Assembly (NCBI RefSeq): GCF_009931435.1
Contig: NZ_CP043414.1
Strand: one strand, 5' to 3'
Origin: Escherichia coli
GTDB lineage: Bacteria; Pseudomonadota; Gammaproteobacteria; Enterobacterales; Enterobacteriaceae
Length of the DNA stretch: 64,000 bases
In this document: positions 15,734 through 53,500 of the stretch, one piece after another
Numbering within the stretch: position 1 is the first letter of the stretch
Layout of the letters: each line of letters begins with the position of its first letter
The notes under the pieces: generated by a model
What the model was told of the DNA's origin: nothing
What the model saw: only the letters and a program-made list of their open reading frames with translations
The model's database searches: none
Translations under genes and position numbers: made by a program

Positions 15734-15785
15734 AAAAATGGCACCTTATAAAGCGCCATTTGAAACTGATGGCAAACGCAACATT

Positions 15786-15885
15786 GCCTGATGCGCTACG
15801 CTTATCTGACCTACACGTTCACTGCAATCTATTGGATTTGAACGGTTTGTAGGCCGGATAAGGCGTTCACGCCGCATCCGGCATG
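15786..15885. repeat. REP/BIME palindromic element cluster
   Basis: gcctgatgcgctacgcttatc... and gtaggccggataaggcgttcacgccgcatccggca match the classic REP consensus. Confidence 0.65.
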
Positions 15886-15913
15886 AATAAAGCCTACGTT
15901 GTCTACAATATGA

Positions 15914-36879: not shown

Positions 36880-37270
36880 AGAATCATATGCAGCAACCAA
36901 GTTGCTTAAGCAATGTTTCCATATGAGTTAAAAGATATTTTATCTCACGATTGCATATTTTTAGTGAAGATTAATTTATCCTCACCAACATCATAGTAAT
37001 TGCGTATTATCGCCTCATTGATAAAGCCCTATTTTGTATAAAATGCGCGGGCGGCACTAAAATCGATATGGCTAGAGATCTCTACTAAAAGTAGTCTTGC
37101 GTGATTGGGACAGGTCAAGAAAAAGCAGTTTTGCAGTTTTTTATTTCAGGGCGCAGTTGCGAAAATTGAATACCGTATGGACTAATGTGAGAAAATTCCG
37201 AGGTACGACTGTTTTGATATAGTGGACAATCAAGCGTCTCGAATTAACAATGAATTTCAGGTGCCAAGCC

Positions 37271-37993
37271 TTACAATTTGTAGCATGACGGATATAGGAC
37301 AACATTAGGAAATCGGACAGAAAATTCATTATAATAAAATGACAACTTATCTCTTTCTCTCACGTTCTGTGAAATTTCACAAAAGTATAAACTGAGCCAA
37401 TATGCCTTTATATATAAAAAATACTCATGTTTATTATTATCGGAAAAAGCCAAGATTTGATTAAGGCCATCAAAAATATCTTTCTCATGATCTATATGTA
37501 CTCTTGATGATTTTACAATATCTTTTAATTCGCGGTAAATCTTATTAAATAGCGCAACCGATTCACTGTTATTGAATCCATAGTTGATAAAAAGACATGA
37601 TTTAACATCCGATATTAGCAAGTCGTCATAATTCATCTCTATTTCAGACAATTTCACGATATACTCAGCTATAGTATTACTTTGTAAGGACTCAACAACT
37701 GACAGTAAAACAGATGGATGCAATAATATTTCAAGAAGACTTTTATCGATATTTTTATACACATTTATTGCAAATTCATCATTCGTCCCATCGATGGTGT
37801 CAGATATTGAAAAAAATACATAATCGGGGAGTTCATACCACATATTAATTTTAATAATATCACGACACATATCTTCTAATTGTTGTAATCTATTACCTTT
37901 ATTCATAACAACCTTAATATTATATGGAATCTTTGGCGGAATCTTCTTAACTCTGAGGAATTTTACTAAACCTTTGTTAGAGAAAATATGCAT
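37271..37993 (-). CDS. Hypothetical protein, AT-rich orphan ORF (no recognisable domain)
   Basis: 240 aa ORF, very low GC, no signal peptide or motif recognised; directly downstream of ISAs1 remnant. Confidence 0.45.
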   Translation of the reverse strand: MHIFSNKGLVKFLRVKKIPPKIPYNIKVVMNKGNRLQQLEDMCRDIIKINMWYELPDYVFFSISDTIDGTNDEFAINVYKNIDKSLLEILLHPSVLLSVVESLQSNTIAEYIVKLSEIEMNYDDLLISDVKSCLFINYGFNNSESVALFNKIYRELKDIVKSSRVHIDHEKDIFDGLNQILAFSDNNKHEYFLYIKAYWLSLYFCEISQNVRERDKLSFYYNEFSVRFPNVVLYPSCYKL

Positions 37994-38069
37994 ATCACTG
38001 ACAGCGTGTTATTAATTCACTCTGGTGTTATATAACAAAAATATCCCCTCCTGTTTTCACCTCTTTGTA

Positions 38070-39280
38070 TTCATGATAGTTAAGGGGAGTGCTAACTTAA
38101 TATAAACACCCAGGGCAAGATTACGAAAGCCCGCTCCCCGCAAGGACTGACGCCAGATACTTTCTGTCCATGGTTGCTTTTCGCATCTTACGTCTTAACC
38201 CTGCTTGAATACCTCATCATTCGTCAAAATATTAATAGCGATGTGCCGTATCCCTGAAAATAATTCTGCTGCATTTCCTCTTCTTATTTTGCAGTCGTCT
38301 TCATTCATTACCACGTCCAGACGCCAGTGCAGCTTATTCTCCACGTGCCAGTGGTTTCGGATTGCTGTGGCGAACTTCTCTGCGGTTAAATCAGCAGAAC
38401 TGATATAATATCTGACCGTCATTTCTGGCTCTTTCTTTTGTTCTGCTATTATTGACCGAAAGGAGACTGCCACGCATAATTTCTTCAGACCTTTCCATTC
38501 AAACGTGAAATCAATAAGTTCATCAGGGACATCGCAAACAATGTGAAGACGGATTTCTTCTCTGCCGTGACTCTTTTCACTAATTGCGTAACTGTCATGC
38601 TCTGGATTATTTAATTCTTTCAGCGGAAATTTTTCCTCGAAGCCTTTATTTAGCCGCCCCTGGTTTCCTTTTACAGCGAATAAATAATCACCTCCCTGTT
38701 TTTGTATCTTCTCTGCAATATCTTTCTGGCAACCCATCGCATCAGTTGTGATGATTTTTCCTTTAATATCCAGCATGTTAAGAAGTTCTGGGATAGCTGT
38801 AATCTCATTGGATTTCTCATCCGTCTTGATCTGTCCGATGACCAGACTGTGCATTGTTGAGAACGCACTAATGACATGAATCGCTCCCCTGCGGCGACTC
38901 TTGTCATAAGAGTGCCGGAGCGTTTTTCCATCAATTGCAATGACGTCTTTATCATCTGAAGAATGGCAGTCACGCATCCAGTTAATAAAGCACTCATGAA
39001 ATTTTGCAGGACTGATACAGGATACAACTTTGGCAATGATATCGTGAACAGGAATACCATTTTCAAAATCACCATATCACTTCAAAAAATCGAGATGTGT
39101 TTCCCAAAAATTCGCTATATTTTCCTATCCTTCTGCACCAAAAATAACGGCACAAATAGCCAACAGTAGAATATCCGATAATTTATGCTCCACTTTCCAG
39201 GCTTGTCTGTAATCGGGGATAACAGAAATATGTTCCATCAATTTTTTAAGTACCATTTTGTTCTCCTTAATTATGTAAGG
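38070..39280 (-). mobile_element. ISAs1-family (H-repeat) insertion sequence, boundaries approximate
   Basis: Transposase-homologous sequence flanked by imperfect inverted repeats (about 38073-38087 atgatagttaagggg vs 39263-39277 ctccttaattatgta). Confidence 0.5.
38195..39238 (-). pseudogene. ISAs1-family transposase (H-repeat-associated protein) inactivated by two in-frame nonsense codons
   Basis: Hand translation from ATG 39238: [37 protein letters not shown]-stop-ENIANFWETHLDFLK-stop-YGDFENG..., continuing in frame into track ORF 38195-38977 ([11 protein letters not shown]...). Confidence 0.8.
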
Positions 39281-39562
39281 AGTATTTGATCATGTATAAG
39301 CAATAAAAAACAGCTTCAGGTAATGAGGAATATCTCAATTTTTAAACATAAAATGCGAATTGTTTAGTACAAAAAGTGTACTTCTGATGATCTTTCCCTG
39401 CCTATCAGCCCCCCTGCTGAACCCTGCACAATATCCAGTCCCTTGCGGGTCATGTCACCCTGCCGCGCCGCCGGTTTTCCGCTCATGGTTTATTCCTTTT
39501 CTTTTACCTTACATGTCCATACAAATAGTTACCTATACTGTCTTTGAATATTGCCCTACCAT

Positions 39563-40012
39563 TTAAAGCCCACCTATTTCTTGCGACAGAAAAGGGATTT
39601 CTTTTTTAATCCAATCTATCATTTCATTTTTTTCAAAACATACGTTAATGCCATTCACACTGCCACATTCACCAAAACCATCAAAATAAATTTCACATTT
39701 ATTATTTTTATTCGAAACAATGTCAACCCCCCATCTTATATCGTTATTCTCCTCCTTCCTGAAATACTTCATTTGCAATAAATCAATTATCTCACCAGCA
39801 TAAAAATCGCTAACCCCATTCACCACCACTTTATGTTTGTATATTCTCTTGAGACCTTCCTTGCTAAGCGGGGTTAAGGTGGTAACATATGCTGGAAGAT
39901 TAATTATTTCTATCGTTTTCACACTATCTATTCCACACAATTCATTCACTCGCCCCATCCCCAATACCGAAGCAGAAAATAGAGACAATAAAACCATCAA
40001 ATATTTCATCAT
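39563..40012 (-). CDS. Candidate Rhs immunity protein with N-terminal signal peptide
   Basis: 149 aa; starts 12 nt after Rhs stop; hydrophobic N-terminus MMKYLMVLLSLFSASVLG; AT-rich. Confidence 0.5.
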   Translation of the reverse strand: MMKYLMVLLSLFSASVLGMGRVNELCGIDSVKTIEIINLPAYVTTLTPLSKEGLKRIYKHKVVVNGVSDFYAGEIIDLLQMKYFRKEENNDIRWGVDIVSNKNNKCEIYFDGFGECGSVNGINVCFEKNEMIDWIKKEIPFLSQEIGGL

Positions 40013-40024
40013 AAAAAAATCTCA

Positions 40025-43000
40025 CTATTCTGGCGTGCCATTTATTGTTGCCGTCTGCGTTGGTGTATTCACACGATAATACACTCCATTATATGCTGTT
40101 CTGGTACACTCACCTAAAGTTTTCGCCGCATGCTGTTCAATTAAAGTGATAACTCTCGCCTCTTCTTTATTTTTATATTGTTCATCCGCACGTCTCACAA
40201 GCCCCATATAACCATCCTTATCAATAAGATATAAGTGCGCATGAGCAAACTCATGCCCCAAACCTAATGCAGGTGATTGTGATTTCGATTTTAAATCAGT
40301 TGAACAAAATAAAGCCGCCTTACCATTCCAATATATAGTCATTTTATCCGGGTCAAATCTAACGTCGGTTTCATCAATATACTCTATCTTTATGGTTTCT
40401 TCAGAGCTTGATAAAAAATCTATAGCTTCTTTCATTCGTGAATCTTGTTTTAAATACTCAACAGCCTGATTAAAATCACTTGGATCACCGTTAACATGGA
40501 ATTTTAAACCCAAAGAATCTATAAACCGAACAGGGTTTAATGGATATTTATACAGATTCCATTCACCTCTTAGCCCGATTGGATCCTGGGTGATATACCT
40601 CCCCTGTAGCGGGTCATAGTACCGGTTCCGGTTATAATACAGCCCCGACTCCTCATCGTGTTGCTGCCCTGGCAGACGGTACGGCTGGTGCATGTGATGC
40701 GAGTTTTCCTCATTCAGCAGGTTTCCCCACTCATCATACTCCCCGCTCCACGCCGTATTGCCGTCTTCGCTGATGAGCGCCAGCGGCAGGCCCCGGTGGT
40801 CGCAGTGATACAGATGCAGCGTGCGTGCCGGTGTGTATTCCGGCTCCACCTGTCTGGCCAGTTGCTCCACCGTCAGCCCGCACTGCGCAAGCCACGCCCG
40901 GCTTTCACTGCTCACGCGGTCTGCCCGGATTTCTTCCTCCAGCCTGTCCAGCATCCTCACAAGTTCTGCCGGGAACACCACACCGTGCCCGTCCTCACTC
41001 CCTTCCTGCTGCAGCTTCTCCGCCAGGCTCCGGCGCTGCGCTTTCTCCCGCTCGCCGTTCTCTGTTTCGATGCGGATGAGCGGCGTGAAGCTCCCAGGCT
41101 GGTAGACCGTCTGGATACGTGTGGTGTCGGTCTGTACCGTCGTCAGCCGGTCACCGTCCCACCCGTACCACGTTACCTCCGGTTTACGCGACAGCGACAT
41201 CCACCCCGTCAGGTCACGCTCCCGCCGCCATACCCGTTTCGCCATTCGCCGTCCCAGCGGGTCGTAGAGGTAGCGGCTCTCGACCAGTGGCTCGCCATGC
41301 TGTATCCGCGTGTAGAACACCAGGCGTGCTGGCTGTCGTAGTGGTAGTGGTGGGTCCGCTCGTCGTCCGTCCGTATCACACCCGCCGGGATGCGGTCCGT
41401 CTTCTCCGTCAGCCTGCCGTATTCATCGTGGCGGTAGACATAGTGCGCATCCTCCGCGATGCGGTTATCCGGCCACACTGTGAGTGTACTGTCCGGGTGC
41501 AGCTCCGGGTCCGGCAGCCGGTTGCCCGCCGGGTCCGTGGCATACGGGATGCGGATGTCCAGGTCCGGTGCGAGGGTGCGCACGCTCTCCAGCCTGCCCG
41601 TGGCACTGTAGCCGTATTCCCGCGTCTGTCGCGGGCCGCTGATGCGCACCAGGTCGCCGTTGTCATTCCACCCGTAGTCACGGTCATACACCAGGCTGTT
41701 CAGGTGCTGACTCTGTAACTGACCTGCGGGGGTGTATGTGCTGGTCAGTTCGTATGCGGAATTACTGCCTGCCATGCTGCCGAAGCTGCGCACCGTCTCA
41801 CGGTGCAGCCTGTCCCGCGTATACTCGACCAGCGGCGTCCCGCCCAGCTTCATTCCCGCCAGGTAACCGCTGCCATACGTCAGCCACTCCACCGGCGGCA
41901 GGCTGTCCGGCGTGACGCGGTTTGCCAGCCCCTGTTCGTTGTATGCCTGTTTCGTCTCATGCTGCCAGAGCAGTTCCTCCGTCTCCGGGTTATGCACCGT
42001 CTGGCGCTCGCCAGTCAGACGGCCCTTGTCGTCATAGCCATAGTGGACGGCAACACGGTGGCCTTCGCTCAGGTGGCTGATTTCTCTCAGCCAGCCGTGG
42101 CCATCATACTGCCACTGCTCTGCCGGTTCGCCGTTCACCGTGCGGTGCGTGATGCGGTCCGATTCGTCGTAGTGCCAGAGGGTGACAAGCCCCTCATCTT
42201 CACTCTGCGTGAGTTTTCCGGTCAGGTCATAGTGGTAACGTTGCGTCCGCCCGTCAAAGCCGCGCTGCTGTACCAGCCGGTCCAGCGCATCGTAGGTAAA
42301 CTCACTTCGGCTGCCGTTCTCGTTAGTCAGCGTGGTGACACGTCCGGCAGCATCATACTCCATACTGCGCGTCAGCCCGCCCTGCGTGGTACTGACCGCC
42401 TTTCCCCACGCATCGTACTGTGTCTCACTCCGGTTGCCATCCGGGGTGATGACGGCGGTCAGGTCGCCTGCGGCGTTGTACTCATACTGCGTTTCACGGC
42501 CCTGTGCGTCTTTCACCGAGGTTAACCGGCCACGGTTGTCATAGCGGCGGTAAAGGCTGATACCTTCCTCGCGGTGAACCGCCGTCATCTGGCCGAAGCG
42601 GTCGTATTCATAGCGGGTCTGGTAGCCCGAGCAGTCGGTGAAGGCCAGCAACTGCCCGTAGCGGCTCCAGGTCATCTGCCGGGTGCTGCCCGTCGCATCC
42701 GTTGTCGTCGCCGGTAACTCACTGTGCGGATTATCATAAGCATACCGGATGACGTCCCCGCTGCGCGATGTCTCCGTTACCAGCCTGTCCCGCTCATCAT
42801 ACGCCCGGCGGCTCTCCAGCCCGTCCGGGGACACCACCGCCGTTAACTGGTTCCCGTCGTTATAGTAAAATTTCGTCTCCCGCCCGTCCGGCGTGGTGAT
42901 ATCCGTGATATCGCCGGACACCACATTCAGGCCGTACTCTGTCCGCCGTCCCGCCGCGTCCGTCTGTGCCGTGAGCCTTCCTGCCGCGTCATACCCGCTG

Positions 43001-44277
43001 TGCGTGACGCTGCCGTCCGCCAGTTCTTTTTTCACCACCCGCTTCAGCCCGGCCCCGCCTTCTGTATGCAGCACCTCTCGCCGGTTCAGGCTGTCCGTGA
43101 TGGTGATGCGGTCCTGCTCATAAAGATAGCGATAGCTTAACCCTGCCGGGTTCAGCTGCTCCACCACCCGCCCGGTATCGTCGTAGCGGTAGCGCATCTC
43201 CGGCCTTCCCGCATAACGGTGCCCCACCATCCGGCCCGGGTGCTGCGCGTCATACGTGAAAGCGCGCACCTGCGTATTGCTGCGGTCATATACCGCCAGC
43301 AGTTCACCGGCTTCCGTATACGTGTAACGCGCCAGTGGCGCACCGGGCAGATTCTCCGGGTATGCCGGGTCGTGCATCAGCCACACCGCCGAAAGACGGA
43401 TGCCCCTGTCGGGGCCGTATTCCGTACCGGGCAGTGTGTCGGGGAACGCTGAGGCTGAGAGAGGGCGGGAACGGTCAGAAGAAGATAGCGAAGAGGTGCG
43501 GGCCTCTTCCGCACGCTGCGCCTGCGTGGTCAGCACCAGACGGAACTTCCGCCCGGCACCGTCCGTCACGCTGGTGATTTCCCCAGCCAGGTCACCGGCG
43601 GCCTCACGCCGGTACGTCAGCGTCCGCCCGAAGCGGTCCGCCAGCCCGGTAAGCACCCGGTACGGCGGCAGCGGCGCTGGCAGTACGTCCTCAGCACCCG
43701 GCACCCGCTCACTCCACCCCAGTATCCACCACGACCCCTGTGCGCTGTTGGTCGCCAGGTAAAGATGCGGGCTTAACCGGATATCCGGCGGCAGCGCCCC
43801 CCACAGTCGCGCCAGCGTGTGGCCGTCCGGCTGCGCTGCCTTACCACCGCGCACCAGCCACATTGACTCGCTGCGGCTGTACACCGCCTCCCCCGGCAGC
43901 AGCGGCTCAAAGTGAATGCTCCGCCCGCCGTTGTCGTTGAGTATCAGTGCGTCATCACGTAGCTGTAAGCGGATATCCGAAGGCGCTTTCCAGCCGGGGC
44001 CGAAAACGCCCACCGGGGCAGGCGTCCTCGTCCGGTAGCTGCTGTAGGTGCGGGAGAGAATGAACGGCAGCGGGCCGGGCAGCGCAAGGTCCGTCTCGCC
44101 GGGCAGCACCTTCGCCCCCAGCAGCGGATTTACCGGGTTGCCCGAAGTCATCCCGCCCGGACACACCGAGCACGCCACGCCGGTGGGCGCGCCAATTCTT
44201 ACACCTGCCGAACCCTGGACAATGGGACCGCCATACTGAGTCATATCTCCCTGACGCGCTGCTGGTTTTCCGCTCAT
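40025..44277 (-). CDS. Rhs-family polymorphic toxin (PAAR-like N-terminus, YD-repeat shell, variable C-terminal tip), interrupted by an apparent -1 frameshift near 41325
   Basis: Track ORFs 41209-44277 (1022 aa) and 40025-41320 (431 aa) overlap in different frames; YD repeats throughout; DPIGL core-end motif; C-terminal tip contains HEFAH. Confidence 0.85.
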
Positions 44278-44343
44278 GATTCAATTCCTTCTTCTGTTTA
44301 TTTTTAATGCTTGTTTGTTACTGAATACCGAACAGGTACGGGA

Positions 44344-46452
44344 TCAGTACTCTCTCATATCCGGCGTATCCTGCTTTTCATCAGGGGTCTTCGGTGGGGA
44401 TTTCGAGGCTGCACAGTTCCAGTTAATCAACAGTGAGTCACCATTAACCTGCTCCTTACCCTGCAAATGAATTTTTGTGCCGTTGAGAAAAATTTGTCCG
44501 TCCTTAGTCAGCACCAGCCTTGCCTTACCACAGCAGAGTTCCAGATGCTCACCGGCGGAGTAAATCGCGGTCTGCCCGGTATCATCCTTTTTCGTTTTAC
44601 CAACGGTGAAGGTAACGTTATTTCCGACTTTGACGTCATAACCCAGCCCGACCATCAACGATTTATGCAAACCGATCTGCGAGGACTGCATCAGGGCCAC
44701 CGAGGTGTTCATAATGCCACCTACCGTCGTCTGATACGCCACGCCCACAGTCAGCGCACGAACAAGTCCAATCGTTTCCACCTGAACAGAGCCCACTTTA
44801 ATGATCTGGTTACTGCCCACCGTCTCTATCTGGTTAACGCCCACCGTCTGTATCTGATTGTTGGTAACCGCAATCACCTGATTGTTGCCGATGGTCTCAG
44901 CATGGTTGTTTATCACATCCGTGGTGCGGTTATTCAGCACCTCGGTGTTCATGTTCTTCTGCGCGTGGATGTAGACCTGTTCTTTCCCTGTCGCATCGTC
45001 AAACTTCAGTTCATTAAACCCGCTGCCCTTATAGGTTTTCGAACGAATGGTCATCTGCGTCTTTGTTCCCGGCAGGCTGCCGGGGGTGCGGTTTTCCTGG
45101 TGGTAGGTACGCCCCATAATAATCGGCTGGTCCGGATCGCCGTTGAGGAAGTCCACAATGACCTCCTGACCCACACGCGGTATCGCCAGGTTACCAAACC
45201 CGGTGCCTGCCCACGCCTGTGCCACACGGATCCAGCATGAACTGTCCTGGTTTGACGGGTTATAACGGTCCCAGTTAAATTTCACCCGCACGCGGCCATG
45301 TTCATCACAGAAGATTTCTTCTCCTGCCGGTCCCGTCACGACGGCGCTCTGCGGGCCATCCACCAGCGGTTTCAGCAACGGCTGTGGCCGCCATGTTCTG
45401 TCTGCCGGTATTACCGCAAAGTGGTTATTCAGCGTGGTACCTGAACCCCTGCGTCCCGGCACCGCCTGCGGCTGCTCGCCGTGCAGTTCACTTGCCACCA
45501 CCTGCCATTCCCGGTTCAGGTTCGCCTGCGGATGCCCCGTCAGCGCAATTCGCCGTCCCGGCCATATCTCCGGAGAACGGCTTGTTCCGCGCGCCACTTC
45601 TGCGTTGTTTCGCCAGCCATCCATCTGCCAGCGGGCAAAGTTCTGCCCGTGGGCACCCTTGAAACGTCCGGGGTAGTCATACACTTCATACTGTGTGCGC
45701 TGGTAATCCTGGTACTGGCCTTCCTGATCAAAACGCCCTGCCCAGCCGGGTCGTTTAAAGGTGTAGTCCTTGGTCACCACGGAAGAAGGGCGGATTTGTG
45801 CGCTGTAGCGGAACTGGCTGATGCATAGGGTGCTCACCTCGGTACGGGTGTTCGGATTCCAGGGGATCTCAAAGGACTCCGGCAGATAACGCACGGTGTC
45901 GCACAGGACCAGGCTCTGGTCGGTACTTTTTTGCGCGTGCTCCTCATAAAAGAAGATGCCTTCCTCCGCCGCCATCCGGCACAGGAAATCGTAATCGGTT
46001 TCGCCGTACTGGACACAAAACTCACGGGAAGGATGCGGCTCGCTGAACAGCGGACTCCACTCGGTCACCCCGTTTTCTTTCAGGATCGTCGCGAGTATGC
46101 TTTCGATGTCCTCATTCTGGAAGATACGGAAGTTCTGGCGCAGCCCTGTGCGCCACAGCGGTGGGCACACCTTCATGCTGTACAGCATCTGGTTTTTGTC
46201 GTTCTCCCCCAGTTCAAACCAGGTCACCACACCTTTTACCCGGCGCTGTACGTCATCGCCCTGCCATACCGTCAGGTAGGCCATTTTGTCGAGGATCTGC
46301 GGAAATTCAAGGGAAAGAAACTGCTGACTGACCAGAGAAAGGTCGAGGGAAAAAAGTGAAGAGAGTGACTGGGTGAGATGAAAGGAAACCACCGCAAACG
46401 CGTCCGGTGGCAGGCCGTCCACTTCCAGCGTGAAACGTAATCCGGTTGACAT
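44344..46452 (-). CDS. vgrG: VgrG-type T6SS spike protein
   Basis: Track ORF 44344-46488; start at ATG 46452 (MSTGLRFTLEVDGLPPDAF...); gp27/gp5-like; Val-Gly repeats (VGVNQIETVGSNQIIKVGSVQVETIG). Confidence 0.9.
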   Translation of the reverse strand: MSTGLRFTLEVDGLPPDAFAVVSFHLTQSLSSLFSLDLSLVSQQFLSLEFPQILDKMAYLTVWQGDDVQRRVKGVVTWFELGENDKNQMLYSMKVCPPLWRTGLRQNFRIFQNEDIESILATILKENGVTEWSPLFSEPHPSREFCVQYGETDYDFLCRMAAEEGIFFYEEHAQKSTDQSLVLCDTVRYLPESFEIPWNPNTRTEVSTLCISQFRYSAQIRPSSVVTKDYTFKRPGWAGRFDQEGQYQDYQRTQYEVYDYPGRFKGAHGQNFARWQMDGWRNNAEVARGTSRSPEIWPGRRIALTGHPQANLNREWQVVASELHGEQPQAVPGRRGSGTTLNNHFAVIPADRTWRPQPLLKPLVDGPQSAVVTGPAGEEIFCDEHGRVRVKFNWDRYNPSNQDSSCWIRVAQAWAGTGFGNLAIPRVGQEVIVDFLNGDPDQPIIMGRTYHQENRTPGSLPGTKTQMTIRSKTYKGSGFNELKFDDATGKEQVYIHAQKNMNTEVLNNRTTDVINNHAETIGNNQVIAVTNNQIQTVGVNQIETVGSNQIIKVGSVQVETIGLVRALTVGVAYQTTVGGIMNTSVALMQSSQIGLHKSLMVGLGYDVKVGNNVTFTVGKTKKDDTGQTAIYSAGEHLELCCGKARLVLTKDGQIFLNGTKIHLQGKEQVNGDSLLINWNCAASKSPPKTPDEKQDTPDMREY

Positions 46453-47272
46453 AGCAACCTCCGTGAAAATGAATAATAATCCGCACATATTGCATGTACA
46501 ACATGTCGGACGGATGAGATAAGCGAGTCGACATCTGGCGTTACCGGGGAATATCAGAAAAATGTCATGGTTATGTGATGATTTAGTCTGGGATTTTACT
46601 TCAGAGAAACGGGTGTCTGTTTAGTCAACAAAATAATCACAAACGCAACGGATGGGTTCTCGACGTTATTCACGACAGGCTCGTACATTACAGCGAGTAA
46701 TAAAAAACCTGATATGCAAAGTCAAACCAATATTCATAATGTCTTTTTATTCACAAAAATAAATAATTCAATAACAATCATTGAAATGAATGATGGTTTG
46801 TATAAGGAATATACGCTACCGCCCCACCCTGATAACATGATCTGCACATTGCCATCTTAACGTCGTTAAACACTGGCTTAATAGTGGATATTTCAAATTA
46901 GGAATTTATTAAATTCACCTGATGAATATCATAAGCAAATAGCATAGAAAATAATGACAACTCCCCCGAGGGGACCATTTCCAAAGCACTGCAACACCAC
47001 CTGGTGCCCGGATGATCTTGCTTCAGTGGTAAGAGTACCTGATTCATTGTTCCCAAAATGGTGTTTTCCCCTGCCCCTCCAATAACGTGCAGCTCTCACG
47101 TGATAATCTATTGATTAGGTTATATTAAGAATCAATATTTGAAATACATCCATTTTCTTGAATAAATCAACATATTTATTTATCAATTGCTGTTTTAGCT
47201 CTGACTCATCAAACTCTCCATATTTTTCCTACAGAAAATCGCGAATAAATACAGAGAACGCCATTTATCCTT

Positions 47273-47485
47273 TTAGCATACCTGCCGGATATTTTTATTT
47301 GTATTAATATTAATTGCATCTCCAACTCCGAGCATATCCATTATTAAAGACATTTTGAGATTATAGAATGCCTGTGATAACAACTGAAACATCTGCACAA
47401 TGTGAATAGTTAGTTTCTTTTCAGAGGAAATGAAATAGACAAGCTGAATGAAAGGGAGAGTGATATAAATTAAAAAACATAACAT
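47273..47485 (-). CDS. Small hypothetical protein (YncH-like by position and length)
   Basis: 70-codon ORF in AT-rich region; only ORF in the 1 kb gap; identity by position only. Confidence 0.3.
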   Translation of the reverse strand: MLCFLIYITLPFIQLVYFISSEKKLTIHIVQMFQLLSQAFYNLKMSLIMDMLGVGDAININTNKNIRQVC

Positions 47486-47560
47486 GAATCTAATTAATTA
47501 CGTCCATCATTGTGGATAAAGTTACTGAATAATAAATAACATAATATTCTGGTATCCCAC

Positions 47561-48178
47561 TCAAATAATTTCATTCCTTTTTAATACTTCTTGTAATTTC
47601 GGTAACTGACATACAGCATCAGCGATCGCACTGATATTCGTGGCATTATCCTGAAACCATTCATGCCCAGGCCCCCATGTGCGCATAGTGCAAAGATAAC
47701 AGTCCACCAGCGTTAGTTGCTCACCAAACGCATAAGGTTCAGCGGTCAATTGTGAATTCAGCCAGATATAAAGCGATTTACGATATTCAATAACATTCTT
47801 CTTTAACTGTTCGGGTGCGTCAGGAGCCCAACGCTCAGGGTAATCGGCGAAAGTGAATGTTGGATAGACATTAGCAACCAGCCAGACCAATAGCCGTTGA
47901 AACTGCTGACGTTCGGCGCGCCTAACCGGTGGCGCAAGGTCCGGGCGACGATCGAGAACCATCAATGCAATCGCCGCTGTCTCCGTCATAATCTCGTCAT
48001 TTTCCAGCGCCAGTGTCGGAATCTGACACAACGGGTTCAGGGTTTTCAATAACTCGCGTGAAGTTCCCTCGTGGTCAAAACCACTGACATCAACGAACTG
48101 ATAAGGAATATCAGCCAGTGATAGCATCAGCTCACTGATTGTAGAGCCCCATCCGGGTACGCCATACACCTTAATCAT
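47561..48178 (-). CDS. yncG: Glutathione S-transferase homologue
   Basis: 205 aa ORF MIKVYGVPGWGSTISELMLSLADIPYQF... Confidence 0.85.
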   Translation of the reverse strand: MIKVYGVPGWGSTISELMLSLADIPYQFVDVSGFDHEGTSRELLKTLNPLCQIPTLALENDEIMTETAAIALMVLDRRPDLAPPVRRAERQQFQRLLVWLVANVYPTFTFADYPERWAPDAPEQLKKNVIEYRKSLYIWLNSQLTAEPYAFGEQLTLVDCYLCTMRTWGPGHEWFQDNATNISAIADAVCQLPKLQEVLKRNEII

Positions 48179-48444
48179 ATGCCCCTCACAATCTTTTAAA
48201 GATTAAGTGTAGGACAGTACACAGGTTAACCAGCAAAAGGATTTGTCATTTTTTCGTCAGTTGTATTATTCCCCTTCAGGATTGTAAGGGGATGTTTTGC
48301 ATCGTTTATCGATAACGGGTAGGATGCTGCGCCGATAGTTTTATACCCATAAAGAATAATGGTGATAACTATCATCGCCAGGATGAATAAACATTGTTCA
48401 TGGCAACTTATATGACTTTTTCATTAAAGCAATCAGGGAGAGCA

Positions 48445-49944
48445 ATGAGTAAACACGACACCGACACTTCAGATCAACACGCCGCGAAACGTCGCTGGCT
48501 TAATGCCCACGAAGAGGGGTATCACAAAGCGATGGGCAATCGCCAGGTACAGATGATCGCCATTGGCGGCGCGATTGGCACCGGCTTGTTTTTAGGTGCA
48601 GGAGCCCGACTGCAAATGGCGGGGCCAGCACTGGCACTGGTCTATTTAATCTGCGGCCTGTTTTCATTTTTTATTCTGCGTGCATTGGGTGAGCTGGTGC
48701 TACACCGCCCTTCCAGTGGCAGTTTTGTCTCTTATGCCCGTGAGTTTTTGGGTGAGAAAGCCGCTTACGTTGCTGGCTGGATGTACTTCATCAACTGGGC
48801 GATGACCGGGATTGTTGATATTACCGCTGTCGCTCTGTATATGCATTACTGGGGCGCGTTTGGCGGCGTGCCGCAGTGGGTCTTTGCGCTCGCTGCGCTG
48901 ACCATCGTTGGCACCATGAATATGATCGGTGTGAAATGGTTTGCGGAGATGGAGTTCTGGTTTGCGCTTATTAAAGTGCTCGCCATTGTGACCTTTTTGG
49001 TCGTGGGTACAGTGTTCCTCGGTAGTGGTCAGCCGCTGGATGGCAACACCACTGGCTTTCATTTAATCACCGATAATGGCGGCTTCTTCCCCCATGGTTT
49101 GCTACCTGCGCTGGTATTGATTCAGGGCGTAGTGTTTGCTTTTGCCTCCATTGAAATGGTGGGTACAGCTGCCGGAGAATGTAAAGATCCGCAGACCATG
49201 GTGCCTAAAGCGATTAACAGTGTGATTTGGCGTATTGGCCTGTTTTACGTCGGCTCCGTGGTGTTGCTGGTTATGTTATTGCCGTGGAGCGCGTATCAGG
49301 CGGGGCAAAGTCCGTTCGTGACGTTTTTCTCTAAACTGGGCGTGCCTTACATCGGCAGCATTATGAACATTGTGGTGCTGACCGCTGCCCTCTCCAGCCT
49401 GAACTCAGGTCTGTACTGCACCGGACGTATTCTGCGCTCAATGGCGATGGGCGGTTCCGCACCGAGTTTTATGGCGAAAATGAGTCGTCAGCATGTGCCG
49501 TATGCCGGGATTCTGGCGACACTAGTTGTGTATGTCGTCGGCGTATTCCTCAACTATCTGGTGCCGTCGCGCGTATTTGAAATTGTGTTGAATTTCGCGT
49601 CGCTGGGAATCATCGCATCATGGGCGTTTATCATTGTTTGCCAGATGCGCCTGCGTAAAGCGATTAAAGAAGGCAAAGCAGCGGATGTCAGTTTTAAACT
49701 GCCTGGCGCGCCCTTCACTTCCTGGCTGACATTACTGTTTTTGCTGAGCGTCCTGGTGCTGATGGCGTTCGATTACCCGAACGGAACTTATACCATTGCG
49801 GCGCTGCCGATTATCGGTATTCTGCTGGTTATAGGCTGGTTTGGTGTGCGCAAACGCGTTGCTGAAATTCACAGCACTGCGCCAGTCGTCGAGGAAGATG
49901 AAGAACAACAGGAAATTGTGTTTAAGCCAGAGACGGCGAGTTAA
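48445..49944 (+). CDS. ansP: L-asparagine permease (APC family)
   Basis: Track ORF 48394-49944; start ATG 48445 (MSKHDTDTSDQHAAKRRWLNAHEEGYHKAM...) gives 499 aa, SD gggagag upstream. Confidence 0.9.
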   Translation: MSKHDTDTSDQHAAKRRWLNAHEEGYHKAMGNRQVQMIAIGGAIGTGLFLGAGARLQMAGPALALVYLICGLFSFFILRALGELVLHRPSSGSFVSYAREFLGEKAAYVAGWMYFINWAMTGIVDITAVALYMHYWGAFGGVPQWVFALAALTIVGTMNMIGVKWFAEMEFWFALIKVLAIVTFLVVGTVFLGSGQPLDGNTTGFHLITDNGGFFPHGLLPALVLIQGVVFAFASIEMVGTAAGECKDPQTMVPKAINSVIWRIGLFYVGSVVLLVMLLPWSAYQAGQSPFVTFFSKLGVPYIGSIMNIVVLTAALSSLNSGLYCTGRILRSMAMGGSAPSFMAKMSRQHVPYAGILATLVVYVVGVFLNYLVPSRVFEIVLNFASLGIIASWAFIIVCQMRLRKAIKEGKAADVSFKLPGAPFTSWLTLLFLLSVLVLMAFDYPNGTYTIAALPIIGILLVIGWFGVRKRVAEIHSTAPVVEEDEEQQEIVFKPETAS

Positions 49945-49952
49945 TTGCAAAA

Positions 49953-49980
49953 TTGCCCGGCTATGTGCCGGGCAAATTCA
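49953..49980 (+). terminator. Rho-independent terminator after ansP (shared with convergent yncE)
   Basis: ttgcccgg-ctatgt-gccgggcaa hairpin; adjacent REP-like gccggatgcggcgtga. Confidence 0.55.
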
Positions 49981-50056
49981 GATTAGAAACGAGGGTGCCG
50001 GATGCGGCGTGATAAAAGTCAGGCAAGTCTCTCAGTTTTCACCCTCGCCATATCTA

Positions 50057-51118
50057 TTACAACGCAATACGAATCACATCGTCCGGCTGAGTAGCTTCCT
50101 GCTGTTTAGTAGATTTTTGTTTCACACTGACATACAGCGTTTTGCCATCGGCAGACAGCGCCAGGCTGTTCGGATGGGTCGGCGTATCGAACGTTTTCAC
50201 CACTTTATAGCTTTTCGCGTCAATCACACTGACTTTACCTGCCTGACGATGCGTTACGTAGGCTTCATTACGCGCTGGGTTAAACAGCACAGCCAGTGAT
50301 TCCGGTGCCGCAACCTTCGCCAGAATATTGCCATTACGGGTATCGACCACTAGCACTTCTGCCGCTTTAGAATCGGTGATAAATGCACGCTGCCTGGCGG
50401 TATCGAGGCTGATGTTGATAAAGAAGTGCTCTTTGCCATCATCCAGCAGCTTTTTACGGCTGAGGATTTTATTGTCGGCGGTGTCGATGGTAATCAATTC
50501 ACCATCGGCATTAGTGGTGTAAAGACGTTTGCCTTTGCTATCCAGCGCCAGACCGGTACTCATTTTACCGGTGTTCTGGATGGCGGTTTTCAGTTTGATA
50601 TTCTCGCCATCAACGACCCAAATCACGCTCTCTTTACCAATACCACTGATGTAAACGGTGTTCGTGGCATCATCAGCTACCAACTCACGCGGTTGCAGCG
50701 GGCGCACCTCTTCCGTGCTCTTACGATCATCCAGCACCAGACGGCCTTTCACTTCGCCCGTTTTGGCATCTATCGCCGTGACCGCGCTGTTTACGGTGTT
50801 ACCAAACCACAACGTCTGAGTCGTGTTATTGATGGTGGCACCAAACGGCTTGAGATCGTTATGGATCGCCTGCGTCACTTCCAGAGTGACCGGATCAAGA
50901 CGATAAACCACGCCACCTTTATCCAGTTTGCGGCTTTGCGAAGTGGCGAGCCACAGCGCGTTTTCTTGCTGGCTATAAGCCATTTCGTAGGCACCTTTAC
51001 CTACCGCTTTACGCAGCATTTCTTCTGCGGCCTGCGTACTGAATGATGAAGCAACAAGCAATGAACCTAACAGTAATGAACCACGCAGGCGCGATGAAAA
51101 CAGATGACGTAAATGCAT
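50057..51118 (-). CDS. yncE: Beta-propeller protein YncE (secreted)
   Basis: 353 aa ORF with signal peptide. Confidence 0.88.
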   Translation of the reverse strand: MHLRHLFSSRLRGSLLLGSLLVASSFSTQAAEEMLRKAVGKGAYEMAYSQQENALWLATSQSRKLDKGGVVYRLDPVTLEVTQAIHNDLKPFGATINNTTQTLWFGNTVNSAVTAIDAKTGEVKGRLVLDDRKSTEEVRPLQPRELVADDATNTVYISGIGKESVIWVVDGENIKLKTAIQNTGKMSTGLALDSKGKRLYTTNADGELITIDTADNKILSRKKLLDDGKEHFFINISLDTARQRAFITDSKAAEVLVVDTRNGNILAKVAAPESLAVLFNPARNEAYVTHRQAGKVSVIDAKSYKVVKTFDTPTHPNSLALSADGKTLYVSVKQKSTKQQEATQPDDVIRIAL

Positions 51119-51359
51119 GACGACTCCCTTTGATGAACCGATATTTTTGCTGCTTCACAATGCTTCGCTAAGCGTAATCATCGTTACGCTCTTGTTATAA
51201 ATGGGAATGATAATCATTATTTTCTCAAATGTGGAGCATTTCTTGCCGTTACGACTACAATTTTCTCAATTACTTAACGTATTGTGCCGTTTCATTTTCC
51301 ATAAATTTACAATTTCATTACCATGACGGCGTTTTCCCATTCTTAACCTGGCTTTTTTC

Positions 51360-53462
51360 ATGAAGATTTTTTCCGTCCGACAGACCGTTTTGCCCGCACT
51401 GCTTGTCCTTTCCCCCGTTGTTTTTGCCGCTGATGAACAGACTATGATTGTCAGTGCCGCACCGCAGGTGGTTTCAGAACTGGATACCCCAGCAGCAGTA
51501 AGCGTGGTGGATGGCGAGGAGATGCGTCTGGCAACACCGCGCATTAACTTGTCCGAATCACTGACCGGCGTGCCTGGTTTGCAGGTACAAAACCGGCAGA
51601 ACTATGCGCAAGATTTACAGCTGTCGATTCGCGGATTTGGCTCCCGCTCCACTTACGGTATTCGCGGTATTCGCCTGTATGTCGACGGTATTCCCGCCAC
51701 AATGCCCGACGGGCAAGGGCAAACATCCAACATCGATTTAAGCAGTGTACAAAATGTGGAAGTGCTGCGTGGCCCCTTTTCTGCCCTGTATGGCAACGCG
51801 TCTGGCGGTGTAATGAATGTCACCACCCAGACCGGGCAACAGCCACCAACCATTGAATCCAGTAGTTACTATGGCAGTTTTGGCAGCTGGCGCTATGGGC
51901 TGAAAGCAACGGGCGCAACGGGAGACGGCACACAGCCCGGCGATGTTGATTACACCGTCTCAACCACGCGTTTTACGACCCACGGCTATCGTGATCATAG
52001 TGGCGCACAGAAAAATTTAGCCAATGCCAAACTGGGCGTTCGCATTGATGACGCCAGCAAATTAAGCCTGATTTTCAATAGTGTGGATATCAAAGCAGAT
52101 GACCCAGGTGGGCTAACCGAAGCAGAATGGAAGGCGAATCCGCAACAAGCGCCACGCGCTGAACAGTACGACACGCGAAAAACCATCAAGCAAACTCAGG
52201 CTGGGTTGCGCTATGAACGTAGCCTGAGTTCGCAGGATGATATGAGTGTGATGATGTATGCCGGAGAACGAGAAACGACCCAGTACCAGTCAATCCCAAT
52301 GGCCCCGCAACTTAACCAATCGCATGCGGGCGGCGTGATTACTCTGCAACGCCATTATCAGGGGATAGACGGCCGCTGGACACACCGTGGCGAACTGGGT
52401 GTTCCGGTCACGTTCACTACCGGCCTGAACTACGAAAACATGAGTGAAAACCGTAAAGGCTACAACAACTTCCGCCTGTATAGCGGCGTGCCGGAATACG
52501 GGCAAAAAGGTGAGTTGCGCCGCGACGAACGCAATCTGATGTGGAACGTCGATCCTTATTTACAAACGCAGTGGCAGCTGATCGAAAAACTGTCGCTGGA
52601 TGCTGGCGTGCGCTACAGCTCCGTATGGTTTGATTCCAACGATCATTACATTACTCCGGGTAACGGCGATGACAGTGGTGATGCCAGTTATCACAAATGG
52701 CTACCAGCCGGATCGTTAAAATATGCAATGACCGATGCCTGGAATATCTATCTGGCAGCCGGGCGTGGTTTTGAAACGCCGACGATTAATGAGCTGTCTT
52801 ATCGTGCTGACGGTCAAAGCGGTATGAACTTTGGTTTAAAACCATCCACCAACGATACAATTGAGATCGGCAGTAAAACGCGTATTGGTAATGGGCTGCT
52901 TAGTCTCGCATTGTTCCAGACCGACACCGATGATGAAATTGTTGTCGATAACAGTAGCGGTGGGCGTACGACTTACAAAAATGCCGGAAAGACCCGTCGT
53001 CAAGGCGCTGAACTGGCATGGGATCAACGTTTCGCGGGAGATTTTCGCGTAAAAGCGTCCTGGACCTGGCTTGATGCGACCTATCGCAGCAATGTGTGCA
53101 ATGAACATGATTGTAACGGTAACCGGATGCCAGGGATCGCCCGTAATATGGGCTTTGCGTCGATAGGTTATGTACCGGAAGATGGCTGGTATGCAGGTAC
53201 GGAAGCGCGTTATATGGGCGATATTATGGCCGATGATGAAAATACGGCCAAAGCGCCGTCTTATACTCTCGTCGGCTTATTCTCCGGGTATAAATACAAT
53301 TTCCACAATTTAAGTGTGGATTTATTTGGTCGTGTCGATAATTTATTCGATAAAGAATACGTTGGTTCTGTCATTGTCAATGAGTCAAACGGGCGATATT
53401 ACGAACCTGCGCCCGGGCGAAATTATGGTATCGGCGTGAATGTTGCGTGGCGATTTGAGTGA
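51360..53462 (+). CDS. yncD: TonB-dependent outer-membrane receptor
   Basis: 700 aa; signal peptide; C-terminal ...VNVAWRFE beta-barrel terminus with aromatic residue. Confidence 0.9.
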   Translation: MKIFSVRQTVLPALLVLSPVVFAADEQTMIVSAAPQVVSELDTPAAVSVVDGEEMRLATPRINLSESLTGVPGLQVQNRQNYAQDLQLSIRGFGSRSTYGIRGIRLYVDGIPATMPDGQGQTSNIDLSSVQNVEVLRGPFSALYGNASGGVMNVTTQTGQQPPTIESSSYYGSFGSWRYGLKATGATGDGTQPGDVDYTVSTTRFTTHGYRDHSGAQKNLANAKLGVRIDDASKLSLIFNSVDIKADDPGGLTEAEWKANPQQAPRAEQYDTRKTIKQTQAGLRYERSLSSQDDMSVMMYAGERETTQYQSIPMAPQLNQSHAGGVITLQRHYQGIDGRWTHRGELGVPVTFTTGLNYENMSENRKGYNNFRLYSGVPEYGQKGELRRDERNLMWNVDPYLQTQWQLIEKLSLDAGVRYSSVWFDSNDHYITPGNGDDSGDASYHKWLPAGSLKYAMTDAWNIYLAAGRGFETPTINELSYRADGQSGMNFGLKPSTNDTIEIGSKTRIGNGLLSLALFQTDTDDEIVVDNSSGGRTTYKNAGKTRRQGAELAWDQRFAGDFRVKASWTWLDATYRSNVCNEHDCNGNRMPGIARNMGFASIGYVPEDGWYAGTEARYMGDIMADDENTAKAPSYTLVGLFSGYKYNFHNLSVDLFGRVDNLFDKEYVGSVIVNESNGRYYEPAPGRNYGIGVNVAWRFE

Positions 53463-53469
53463 TTATATT

Positions 53470-53500
53470 GATGCCCGGTATTTGCCGGGCATTTAATTTA
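53470..53500. terminator. Bidirectional hairpin terminator between convergent yncD and mcbR
   Basis: tgcccgg-tatttg-ccgggca flanked by A/T runs on both sides. Confidence 0.6.

Follow-up and report, generated by a model that had tools for sequence, protein, structure and literature searches.

Organization of the island

The stretch of DNA analysed here (64,000 nucleotides of Escherichia coli contig NZ_CP043414.1, assembly GCF_009931435.1; hereafter the window) contains an island of three genes located between yncH and yddH, at the position occupied by rhsE in strain K-12. These are vgrG, encoding a type VI secretion system (T6SS) spike protein, rhs, encoding a YD-repeat protein with a C-terminal toxin tip, and a gene encoding the putative immunity protein. 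On one side the island is bordered by yncH, yncG, ansP, yncE and pqqU and on the other side by yddH, nhoA, yddE, narVWYZ and narU. The G+C content is 0.61-0.68 in the rhs core and about 0.35 in the toxin tip and immunity gene, which is the classical pattern of Rhs elements. An earlier reading of the same sequence (the original prediction) had described a vgrG–rhs–immunity module lying apart from T6SS core genes, and for the 64-kb window this was borne out: none of tssA-M, hcp and clpV is present, as judged by the transfer of annotations from E. coli 2020CK-00188, whose collinear stretches include none of them.

The product of vgrG is full-length. The open reading frame (ORF) listed for this gene spans 44344-46488 (714 amino acids), but the in-frame ATG at 46488 is an unlikely start and the sensible one is the ATG at 46452. 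The resulting protein has the same length, 702 amino acids, as unflagged RefSeq VgrG proteins at the rhsE locus. It matches TIGR03361 with 628.5 bits (cutoff 186.35) over model positions 1-512 of 513 and contains the Pfam domains Phage_GPD, Phage_base_V and Gp5_trimer_C. A gp27-like hub, an OB-fold and a gp5-like beta-helix are therefore found together in one full-length protein, as in other members of the VgrG / TssI spike family. The gene had been named as a VgrG spike gene from the outset, and the truncation that was mentioned as one of the findings that would speak against the proposed module is not there. The name vgr itself reportedly goes back to genes that the Hill laboratory found upstream of RhsE and RhsG in 1998.

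Between vgrG and rhs there are exactly 66 bp, as originally stated, and such a spacer cannot hold the ORF of a chaperone of the Eag/DUF1795 type. This spacing is conserved across strains (66-67 bp in the islands of the rhsE locus). The start of rhs at 44277 and the N-terminal residues of its product also agree with the original prediction.

The frameshift in rhs

The rhs gene had been read as a single ORF. It is in fact distributed over two ORFs in different frames, one of 1022 amino acids (41209-44277) and the other of 431 amino acids (40025-41320), which overlap by 112 bp. An alignment of the window gene (4253 nt) with its intact counterpart in E. coli 19KM1831 has 4254 columns, with 213 substitutions and exactly one gap. 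The base missing from the window is a C, and its absence turns CAC-CGC-CTG into CACGCCTG.

Restoring this one C gives a stop-free Rhs protein of 1417 amino acids which matches the NCBIfam model NF041261 (RHS_core) over the full length of the model (positions 1-1261 of 1261; 2752 bits, the cutoff being 2000). The repaired protein is also matched by TIGR01643, by TIGR03696 (Rhs_assc_core, residues 1181-1258) and by the Pfam families DUF6531 and RHS_repeat. It is, after the one-base repair, an RHS element core protein (E. coli clade I Rhs), whereas the gene as sequenced has no single uninterrupted frame.

The deletion was searched for in the 5,426 complete E. coli genomes with a 100-nt query laid over the site. 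The best match among 3,711 records had 99.0% identity over 101 bases, from which it follows that no complete E. coli genome shares the deletion. The base was thus lost either through a mutation private to this sequence or through a mistake in base calling. Programmed frameshifting or slippage was also considered as an explanation and was rejected, as the site lacks a slippery run and all other genomes keep the frame.

We consider it very probable that E. coli here carries, at the rhsE site, an auxiliary ('orphan') T6SS effector island of the standard type, in which rhs is inactivated as sequenced by a private 1-bp deletion and decay is at an early stage. The product of the window copy would end before the end of the shell (its last third), the autocleavage site and the toxin, while vgrG and the immunity gene are still open. 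Such a copy would represent an early step of decay in which the immunity and spike proteins are still supplied and the delivery of the toxin is lost.

A different explanation is that the module is fully functional, the deletion being an error of sequencing or assembly, so that the real rhs is intact, encodes 1417 amino acids and forms part of an active auxiliary effector set for a T6SS elsewhere. That a single restored C yields a stop-free protein with an end-to-end RHS_core match is what would be expected from such an error, which would also look like a deletion found in no other genome. Moreover no damage is seen in vgrG, the ribosome-binding sites or the immunity gene, and 19KM1831 has exactly the same tip and immunity protein (100% identity for both; 100% and 148 of 149 residues, respectively, in comparison with strain PCN033). 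Nevertheless we regard this explanation as unlikely. The deletion site is no long homopolymer, since a CC was reduced to C, and the adjoining ISAs1 element, with two stops and an indel, indicates genuine decay in the locus. Frameshifted rhs genes are, in addition, common in E. coli, with two of seven in strain W (PMC3032704) and several flagged by RefSeq, and in 2020CK-00188, the closest relative for the flanks, the T6SS cluster is degraded.

It may also be asked whether the frameshifted gene is still functional, either because the 1022-amino-acid product caps VgrG as a tip without toxin or because an internal start gives a free toxin fragment held by the immunity protein. The 5' ORF does retain the N-terminal piece and the DUF6531 plug, and in the downstream frame a GTG at 41320 is followed by open sequence through the toxin. 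However, a closed cage is unlikely to form from an Rhs shell that lacks its last third and the C-terminal plug, neither a ribosome-binding site nor conservation supports initiation at 41320, and a toxin fragment that has lost the N-terminal piece cannot reach the spike. As the lesion is private to the window sequence, selection has not acted in favour of such a product either, and we find this possibility very improbable.

Table 1. Features of the vgrG–rhs island and its surroundings, in coordinates of the window.
Feature	Coordinates	Strand	Remarks
Island vgrG–rhs–immunity gene		minus (all genes)	between yncH and yddH, K-12 rhsE position
yncH–vgrG intergenic region	46453..47272		AT-rich (G+C 0.33-0.37); presumed promoter region of the module; conserved across E. 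coli; K-12 retains it down to 46520
vgrG (tssI)	44344..46452	minus	702 amino acids, intact ORF; ribosome-binding site GGAGG 7 nt upstream
vgrG–rhs spacer	44278..44343		66 bp, no ORF; carries the rhs ribosome-binding site GAAGGA
rhs in authentic frame, residues 1-983, up to the frameshift	41327..44277	minus	then out of frame to a stop at 41209
rhs, PAAR-like N-terminal piece	44137..44277		residues 1-47
rhs, DUF6531 plug			residues 46-123; followed by the YD-repeat shell
rhs, site of the 1-bp deletion	41326..41327 (approx.)	minus	codon 984 of 1417; gene position 2951/2952
rhs 3' of the frameshift	40502..41326	minus	rest of shell and C-terminal plug; ends in autocleavage motif DPIGL-(18)-DSLGL (40502-40585)
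Toxin tip	40025..40501	minus	158 amino acids; AT-rich (G+C ~0.36); putative HExxH zincin, probably related to M91 peptidases
Immunity gene	39563..40012	minus	149 amino acids; 'RHS element protein dsORF-h1' family; 12 bp separate it from the rhs stop
ISAs1 / H-repeat transposase (ydcC homologue), pseudogene	38121..39256	minus	3' of immunity gene; two in-frame stops and a 1-bp deletion vs K-12 ydcC

N-terminus of the Rhs protein

The PAAR-like stretch at the N-terminus of Rhs amounts to one repeat and not to a full PAAR domain, which is a cone of about 90 residues with three repeats. Residues 3-20 match positions 52-69 of the 70 positions of PF05488, corresponding to the last repeat, with E=0.11, which is below threshold. 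No transmembrane segment is found in the protein, the highest Kyte-Doolittle mean over 19 residues being 0.87.

Among solved structures the best match of Rhs is the shell of Pseudomonas aeruginosa Tse5 (chain 8cp6_B, E=4e-18). Residue 48 of Rhs (PVNPLLGAK) aligns with the first residue of this chain, P48 (PVNPMLGSK), in a comparison that took in no more than the first ~120 residues of the shell beyond the cleavage site. The N-terminal piece of Tse5, described as 'PAAR-like', has a mass of 5 kDa, lacks a membrane-binding module and apparently serves only in the interaction with the VgrG spike; Tse5 associates with the VgrG1c spike, is secreted with it and acts from the periplasm (PMC10684867). 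The P. aeruginosa vgrG1c–tse5–tsi5 system (PDB 8CP6) thus resembles the window module in the PAAR-like piece of ~47 residues, the aligned cleavage-site region, the DUF6531 plug, the YD shell and the lack of a transmembrane segment. The two differ in the tip, which is a pore-forming toxin in Tse5 and a putative zincin in the Rhs of the window.

The window Rhs does not belong to the class of effectors that depend on an Eag chaperone (prePAAR plus transmembrane segments), as it has no hydrophobic segment and no ORF is present in the 66-bp gap. A DUF1795/Eag gene was likewise not found among the annotations transferred to the window from the collinear genome. Since the Rhs has no transmembrane segment and a Tse5-like N-terminus, the missing Eag/DUF1795 gene is to be expected and is no anomaly of this island.

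Toxin tip and immunity protein

The toxin tip contains the motif HEFAH, which is invariant in an alignment of 22 homologues, both Rhs-fused and free-standing. In the same alignment the region containing HExxH and the motif EExRV…E..AAK.L.E are invariant or nearly so. Relatives from Hafnia with 43-45% identity to the tip bear the name M91 family zinc metallopeptidase and contain PF14891, the Pfam family of the NleD/HopH1-like zincins. In the AlphaFold2 model of the tip (predicted local distance difference test score, pLDDT, 73.5) a Foldseek search against the PDB gave top matches that are almost all zinc metallopeptidases, these being weak (E>0.2). Compared by sequence with solved structures, neither the tip nor the immunity protein gave a meaningful match.

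The immunity candidate that had been placed after rhs is present as an ORF of the dsORF-h1 family, although it lies just beyond the end of the module as originally delimited. Its product is 83-97% identical to E. coli proteins, several of them named dsORF-h1, and 85% identical to WP_000978828.1; the family was seen here essentially only in E. coli and Shigella. Its assignment is based on this homology, on the location directly 3' of the tip and on its co-inheritance with the tip, the immunity protein being 99-100% identical where the tip is 100% identical (149 of 149 residues in 19KM1831, 148 in PCN033). Scans of the immunity protein against NCBIfam and PADLOC gave no match. The protein starts with a stretch that resembles a signal peptide (19-residue hydropathy mean 1.66), followed by four cysteines, which suggests that it is exported by the Sec pathway. 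From this hydrophobic N-terminus and the four cysteines we infer that the toxin may act in the periplasm.

Effectors of a similar kind have been described. In Salmonella, pathogenicity island SPI-19 encodes predicted PAAR-RHS-Peptidase_M91 effectors with membrane or secreted immunity proteins (PMC8867033), and VgrG2b of P. aeruginosa is a metallopeptidase that acts in the periplasm (PMC6899460). The Salmonella effector SED_RS06335 and VgrG2b each have an HExxH metallopeptidase tip, delivery by a T6SS and an immunity partner with a signal peptide or transmembrane segment (PMC8867033, PMC6899460), and the HExxH-containing tip of the window, a putative metallopeptidase, would be comparable to them together with its immunity protein. 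Unlike the SPI-19 effector, the tip of the window is below the threshold for M91 (E=0.1) and is linked to that family by way of its relatives in Hafnia.

The tip that is paired with dsORF-h1 belongs to those Rhs tips that are common in E. coli. We tentatively propose that it may be an uncharacterised periplasmic metallopeptidase toxin, and that the copy in the window is possibly decaying after loss of its cognate T6SS, the exported immunity gene being kept as a protection against kin that fire the toxin.

Distribution and relatives of the island

This type of element is already known from the literature and is very common in E. coli, and its layout is nothing unusual. In 2,594 of the 5,426 complete E. 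coli genomes there is a place that covers at least 80% of the 7.1-kb module. The yncH–vgrG junction gave 3,856 matching records, and in nine of 12 evenly spaced records the junction is fully covered and vgrG is annotated; the records of K-12 type in this sample start only at query position 221 or 239. By this rough estimate, from a sample of 12, vgrG is located next to yncH in about half of the complete genomes (~2,900 junctions).

In E. coli O104:H4 the order of genes is yncH, vgrG (702 amino acids), RHS core (1413 amino acids), dsORF-h1 (149 amino acids), an ISAs1 fragment, pptA and yddH. The site and gene order are those of the window; VgrG is of equal length with 97% amino acid identity, and the tip and immunity protein are 71% and 85% identical. 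The window differs in carrying the tip allele of PCN033 and 19KM1831 in place of the O104:H4 allele, and in having a 1.2-kb AT-rich segment where O104:H4 has pptA. The islands of O104:H4, EDL933, W, B and Crooks at the rhsE locus all share the site and order with the window, which alone has the private frameshift in rhs. Strain 2013C-4282 has vgrG and rhs in the same order at the same site with another tip and so illustrates tip displacement. In this strain ltrA, encoding the reverse transcriptase/maturase of a group II intron, is inserted between ISAs1 and the Rhs immunity gene, which there encodes 132 amino acids.

The association between these genes has been recorded repeatedly. For the 11 positions of rhs that they mapped in E. 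coli, Jackson et al. recorded whether a contiguous vgr is present or absent (PMC2935791). It was later reported that vgr and hcp commonly adjoin rhs and that W, B and Crooks have intact rhs genes at b1455-b1461 (PMC3032704). In EDL933 rhsE is placed downstream of its own vgrG, called vgrG2 or vgrG3 by the authors (PMC7216683).

A relative within a complete secretion cluster was found in strain PCN033, where a 96%-identical vgrG1–rhs module (DNA identity over ~7 kb) stands directly beside hcp and tssB-C-E-F-G-tagH-J-K-L-H-vasI-A-M in the aspV/yafV region. Its tip is 100% identical to that of the window, and its immunity protein differs at a single position. In PCN033 the module is thus part of the main T6SS cluster, and there it is vgrG that is flagged as frameshifted and rhs that is intact, the reverse of the situation in the window. 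The orphan VgrG2 of the same strain can replace VgrG1 if it is expressed from a plasmid, and it shows no native expression (PMC6363058).

These comparisons bear on a further explanation, according to which the Rhs protein has nothing to do with the T6SS and is a toxin displayed on the cell surface or exported in some other way, vgrG being a relic that adjoins it by chance. In its favour, T6SS core genes are absent from the window; the module query, which is mostly rhs core, finds a median of six matching places per genome; and an analysis of enterohaemorrhagic E. coli listed rhsA-D as orphan genes outside any vgrG island (PMC7216683). Against this stand the presence of the same vgrG–rhs pair within the complete T6SS cluster of PCN033, the conserved spacing between the two genes, the secretion of the homologue Tse5 with a VgrG spike complex (PMC10684867) and the ties of vgr and hcp to rhs reported by Jackson et al. 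and in later work (PMC2935791, PMC3032704). We therefore give this explanation hardly any credence, less than any other considered here.

Comparison with rhsE of K-12

In K-12 there is only a 2-kb rhsE pseudogene at the equivalent position, so the statement in the original prediction that this gene is truncated was right. The match to K-12 stops at 46520 and resumes at 42080, and the K-12 deletion corresponds to 42081-46519 of the window, that is, the whole of vgrG and 2.2 kb at the 5' end of rhs. The K-12 pseudogene with ydcD shares with the window the site, an rhs core that is 92% identical over 1.5 kb and the downstream ISAs1 (ydcC). The homology ends at 40533, and the tip and immunity gene are different cassettes, of the dsORF-h1 type in the window and ydcD (160 amino acids) in K-12.

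It had been proposed that the window holds the intact ancestral form of the K-12 element. What stands of this proposal is the rhsE site and the architecture, of which K-12 is a deletion derivative. The window element is itself not intact, given the frameshift at codon 984, and it is not the direct ancestor of K-12 rhsE, because the tip and immunity gene differ past 40533.

Secretion machine and proposed mechanism

On the basis of solved and tested relatives, an intact copy of this module may be expected to work as follows. The N-terminal piece of Rhs would dock on the tip of the VgrG trimer, and the YD-repeat shell would enclose the C-terminal toxin, which an aspartyl autocleavage at DPIGL…DSLGL would release. 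Neighbouring bacteria would then be hit by the VgrG–Rhs spike, fired by the sheath and baseplate of a T6SS encoded elsewhere, probably the cluster linked to aspV, beside which PCN033 has its near-identical module. Once delivered, the putative HExxH zincin toxin would most likely act in the periplasm, since the immunity protein appears to be exported by Sec.

The tssB-tssC genes of the PCN033 type are present with at least 80% coverage in 2,183 of the 5,426 genomes. This number is lower than that of the genomes with vgrG at yncH, and stranded islands are therefore probably common.

In 2020CK-00188 (NZ_ABACVG020000001.1 3,500,000-3,519,200) the T6SS cluster at aspV is degraded. Here tssM is frameshifted and tagH is truncated, and the truncated tagH abuts a 3' fragment of rhs, followed by dsORF-h1 and ISAs1. 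Between the truncated tagH and the rhs fragment no tssB, tssC, tssE, tssF, tssG or vgrG is annotated, which suggests a deletion. The block of rhs, dsORF-h1 and ISAs1 is collinear with 41475-38111 of the window (89.5% identity). If 2020CK-00188, as the closest sequenced relative for the flanks, is taken as a proxy, its degraded aspV cluster fits a relaxed selection on the effector of the window.

Several points weigh against our interpretation of a decaying auxiliary effector island. The frameshift was read in a single sequence and could be a one-base miscall in the CC dinucleotide, and apart from this deletion the rest of rhs is undamaged. The direct Pfam matches are below threshold both for PAAR (E=0.11) and for M91 in the tip (PF14891, E=0.1), the matches of the tip in the fold search are all weak (E>0.2), and the periplasmic action of the toxin is deduced only from the N-terminus of the immunity protein. 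As to the machine, the presence or absence of T6SS genes was judged from the 64-kb window and the proxy genome. 2020CK-00188 is a proxy only, with a left flank at 97.7-98.9% identity and an rhsE locus of its own that is different and broken in the assembly.

The value of these results is mainly for annotation. The appropriate label is that of a vgrG / rhs (pseudogene, frameshifted) / rhsI island, located at the rhsE site, and the terms unusual and ancestral should be avoided for this element. With a broken effector next to open spike and immunity genes, it illustrates the decay of auxiliary T6SS islands, and this picture would be most relevant if the core T6SS of the genome is also degraded, as in its nearest relative. 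The putative zincin toxin family and its putative exported immunity protein, known here from sequence comparison and predicted structure, are a point for follow-up.

Flanking regions and minor features

The window is collinear with 2020CK-00188 at 99.98% identity over 46542-64000 and at 97.7-98.9% over 1-38642. This drop in identity from the right to the left of the island indicates that the island coincides with a recombination boundary between lineages. After yncH, at about 46542, 2020CK-00188 diverges from the window (NZ_ABACVG020000001.1 4,877,082-4,878,159) and has a tetratricopeptide-repeat protein in place of vgrG; the chromosome record breaks there.

In the ISAs1 pseudogene NF033564 matches a fragment of 260 amino acids, and homology at the level of the element extends over 38109-39400. 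The 1.2-kb AT-rich segment (36925-38109, G+C ~0.30) at the place of K-12 pptA contains an ORF on the minus strand (37271-37993) encoding a protein of 240 amino acids, for which no match was found in Pfam, NCBIfam or PADLOC. This segment is present in 193-660 complete E. coli genomes, among them strain 042, and is always annotated as 'hypothetical protein'.

At 15762-15905, between the fdnI and yddM (higA-like) regions, about 145 bp of the window have no counterpart in 2020CK-00188 and the BLAST segments break; this is probably a small repeat or the remnant of an insertion.

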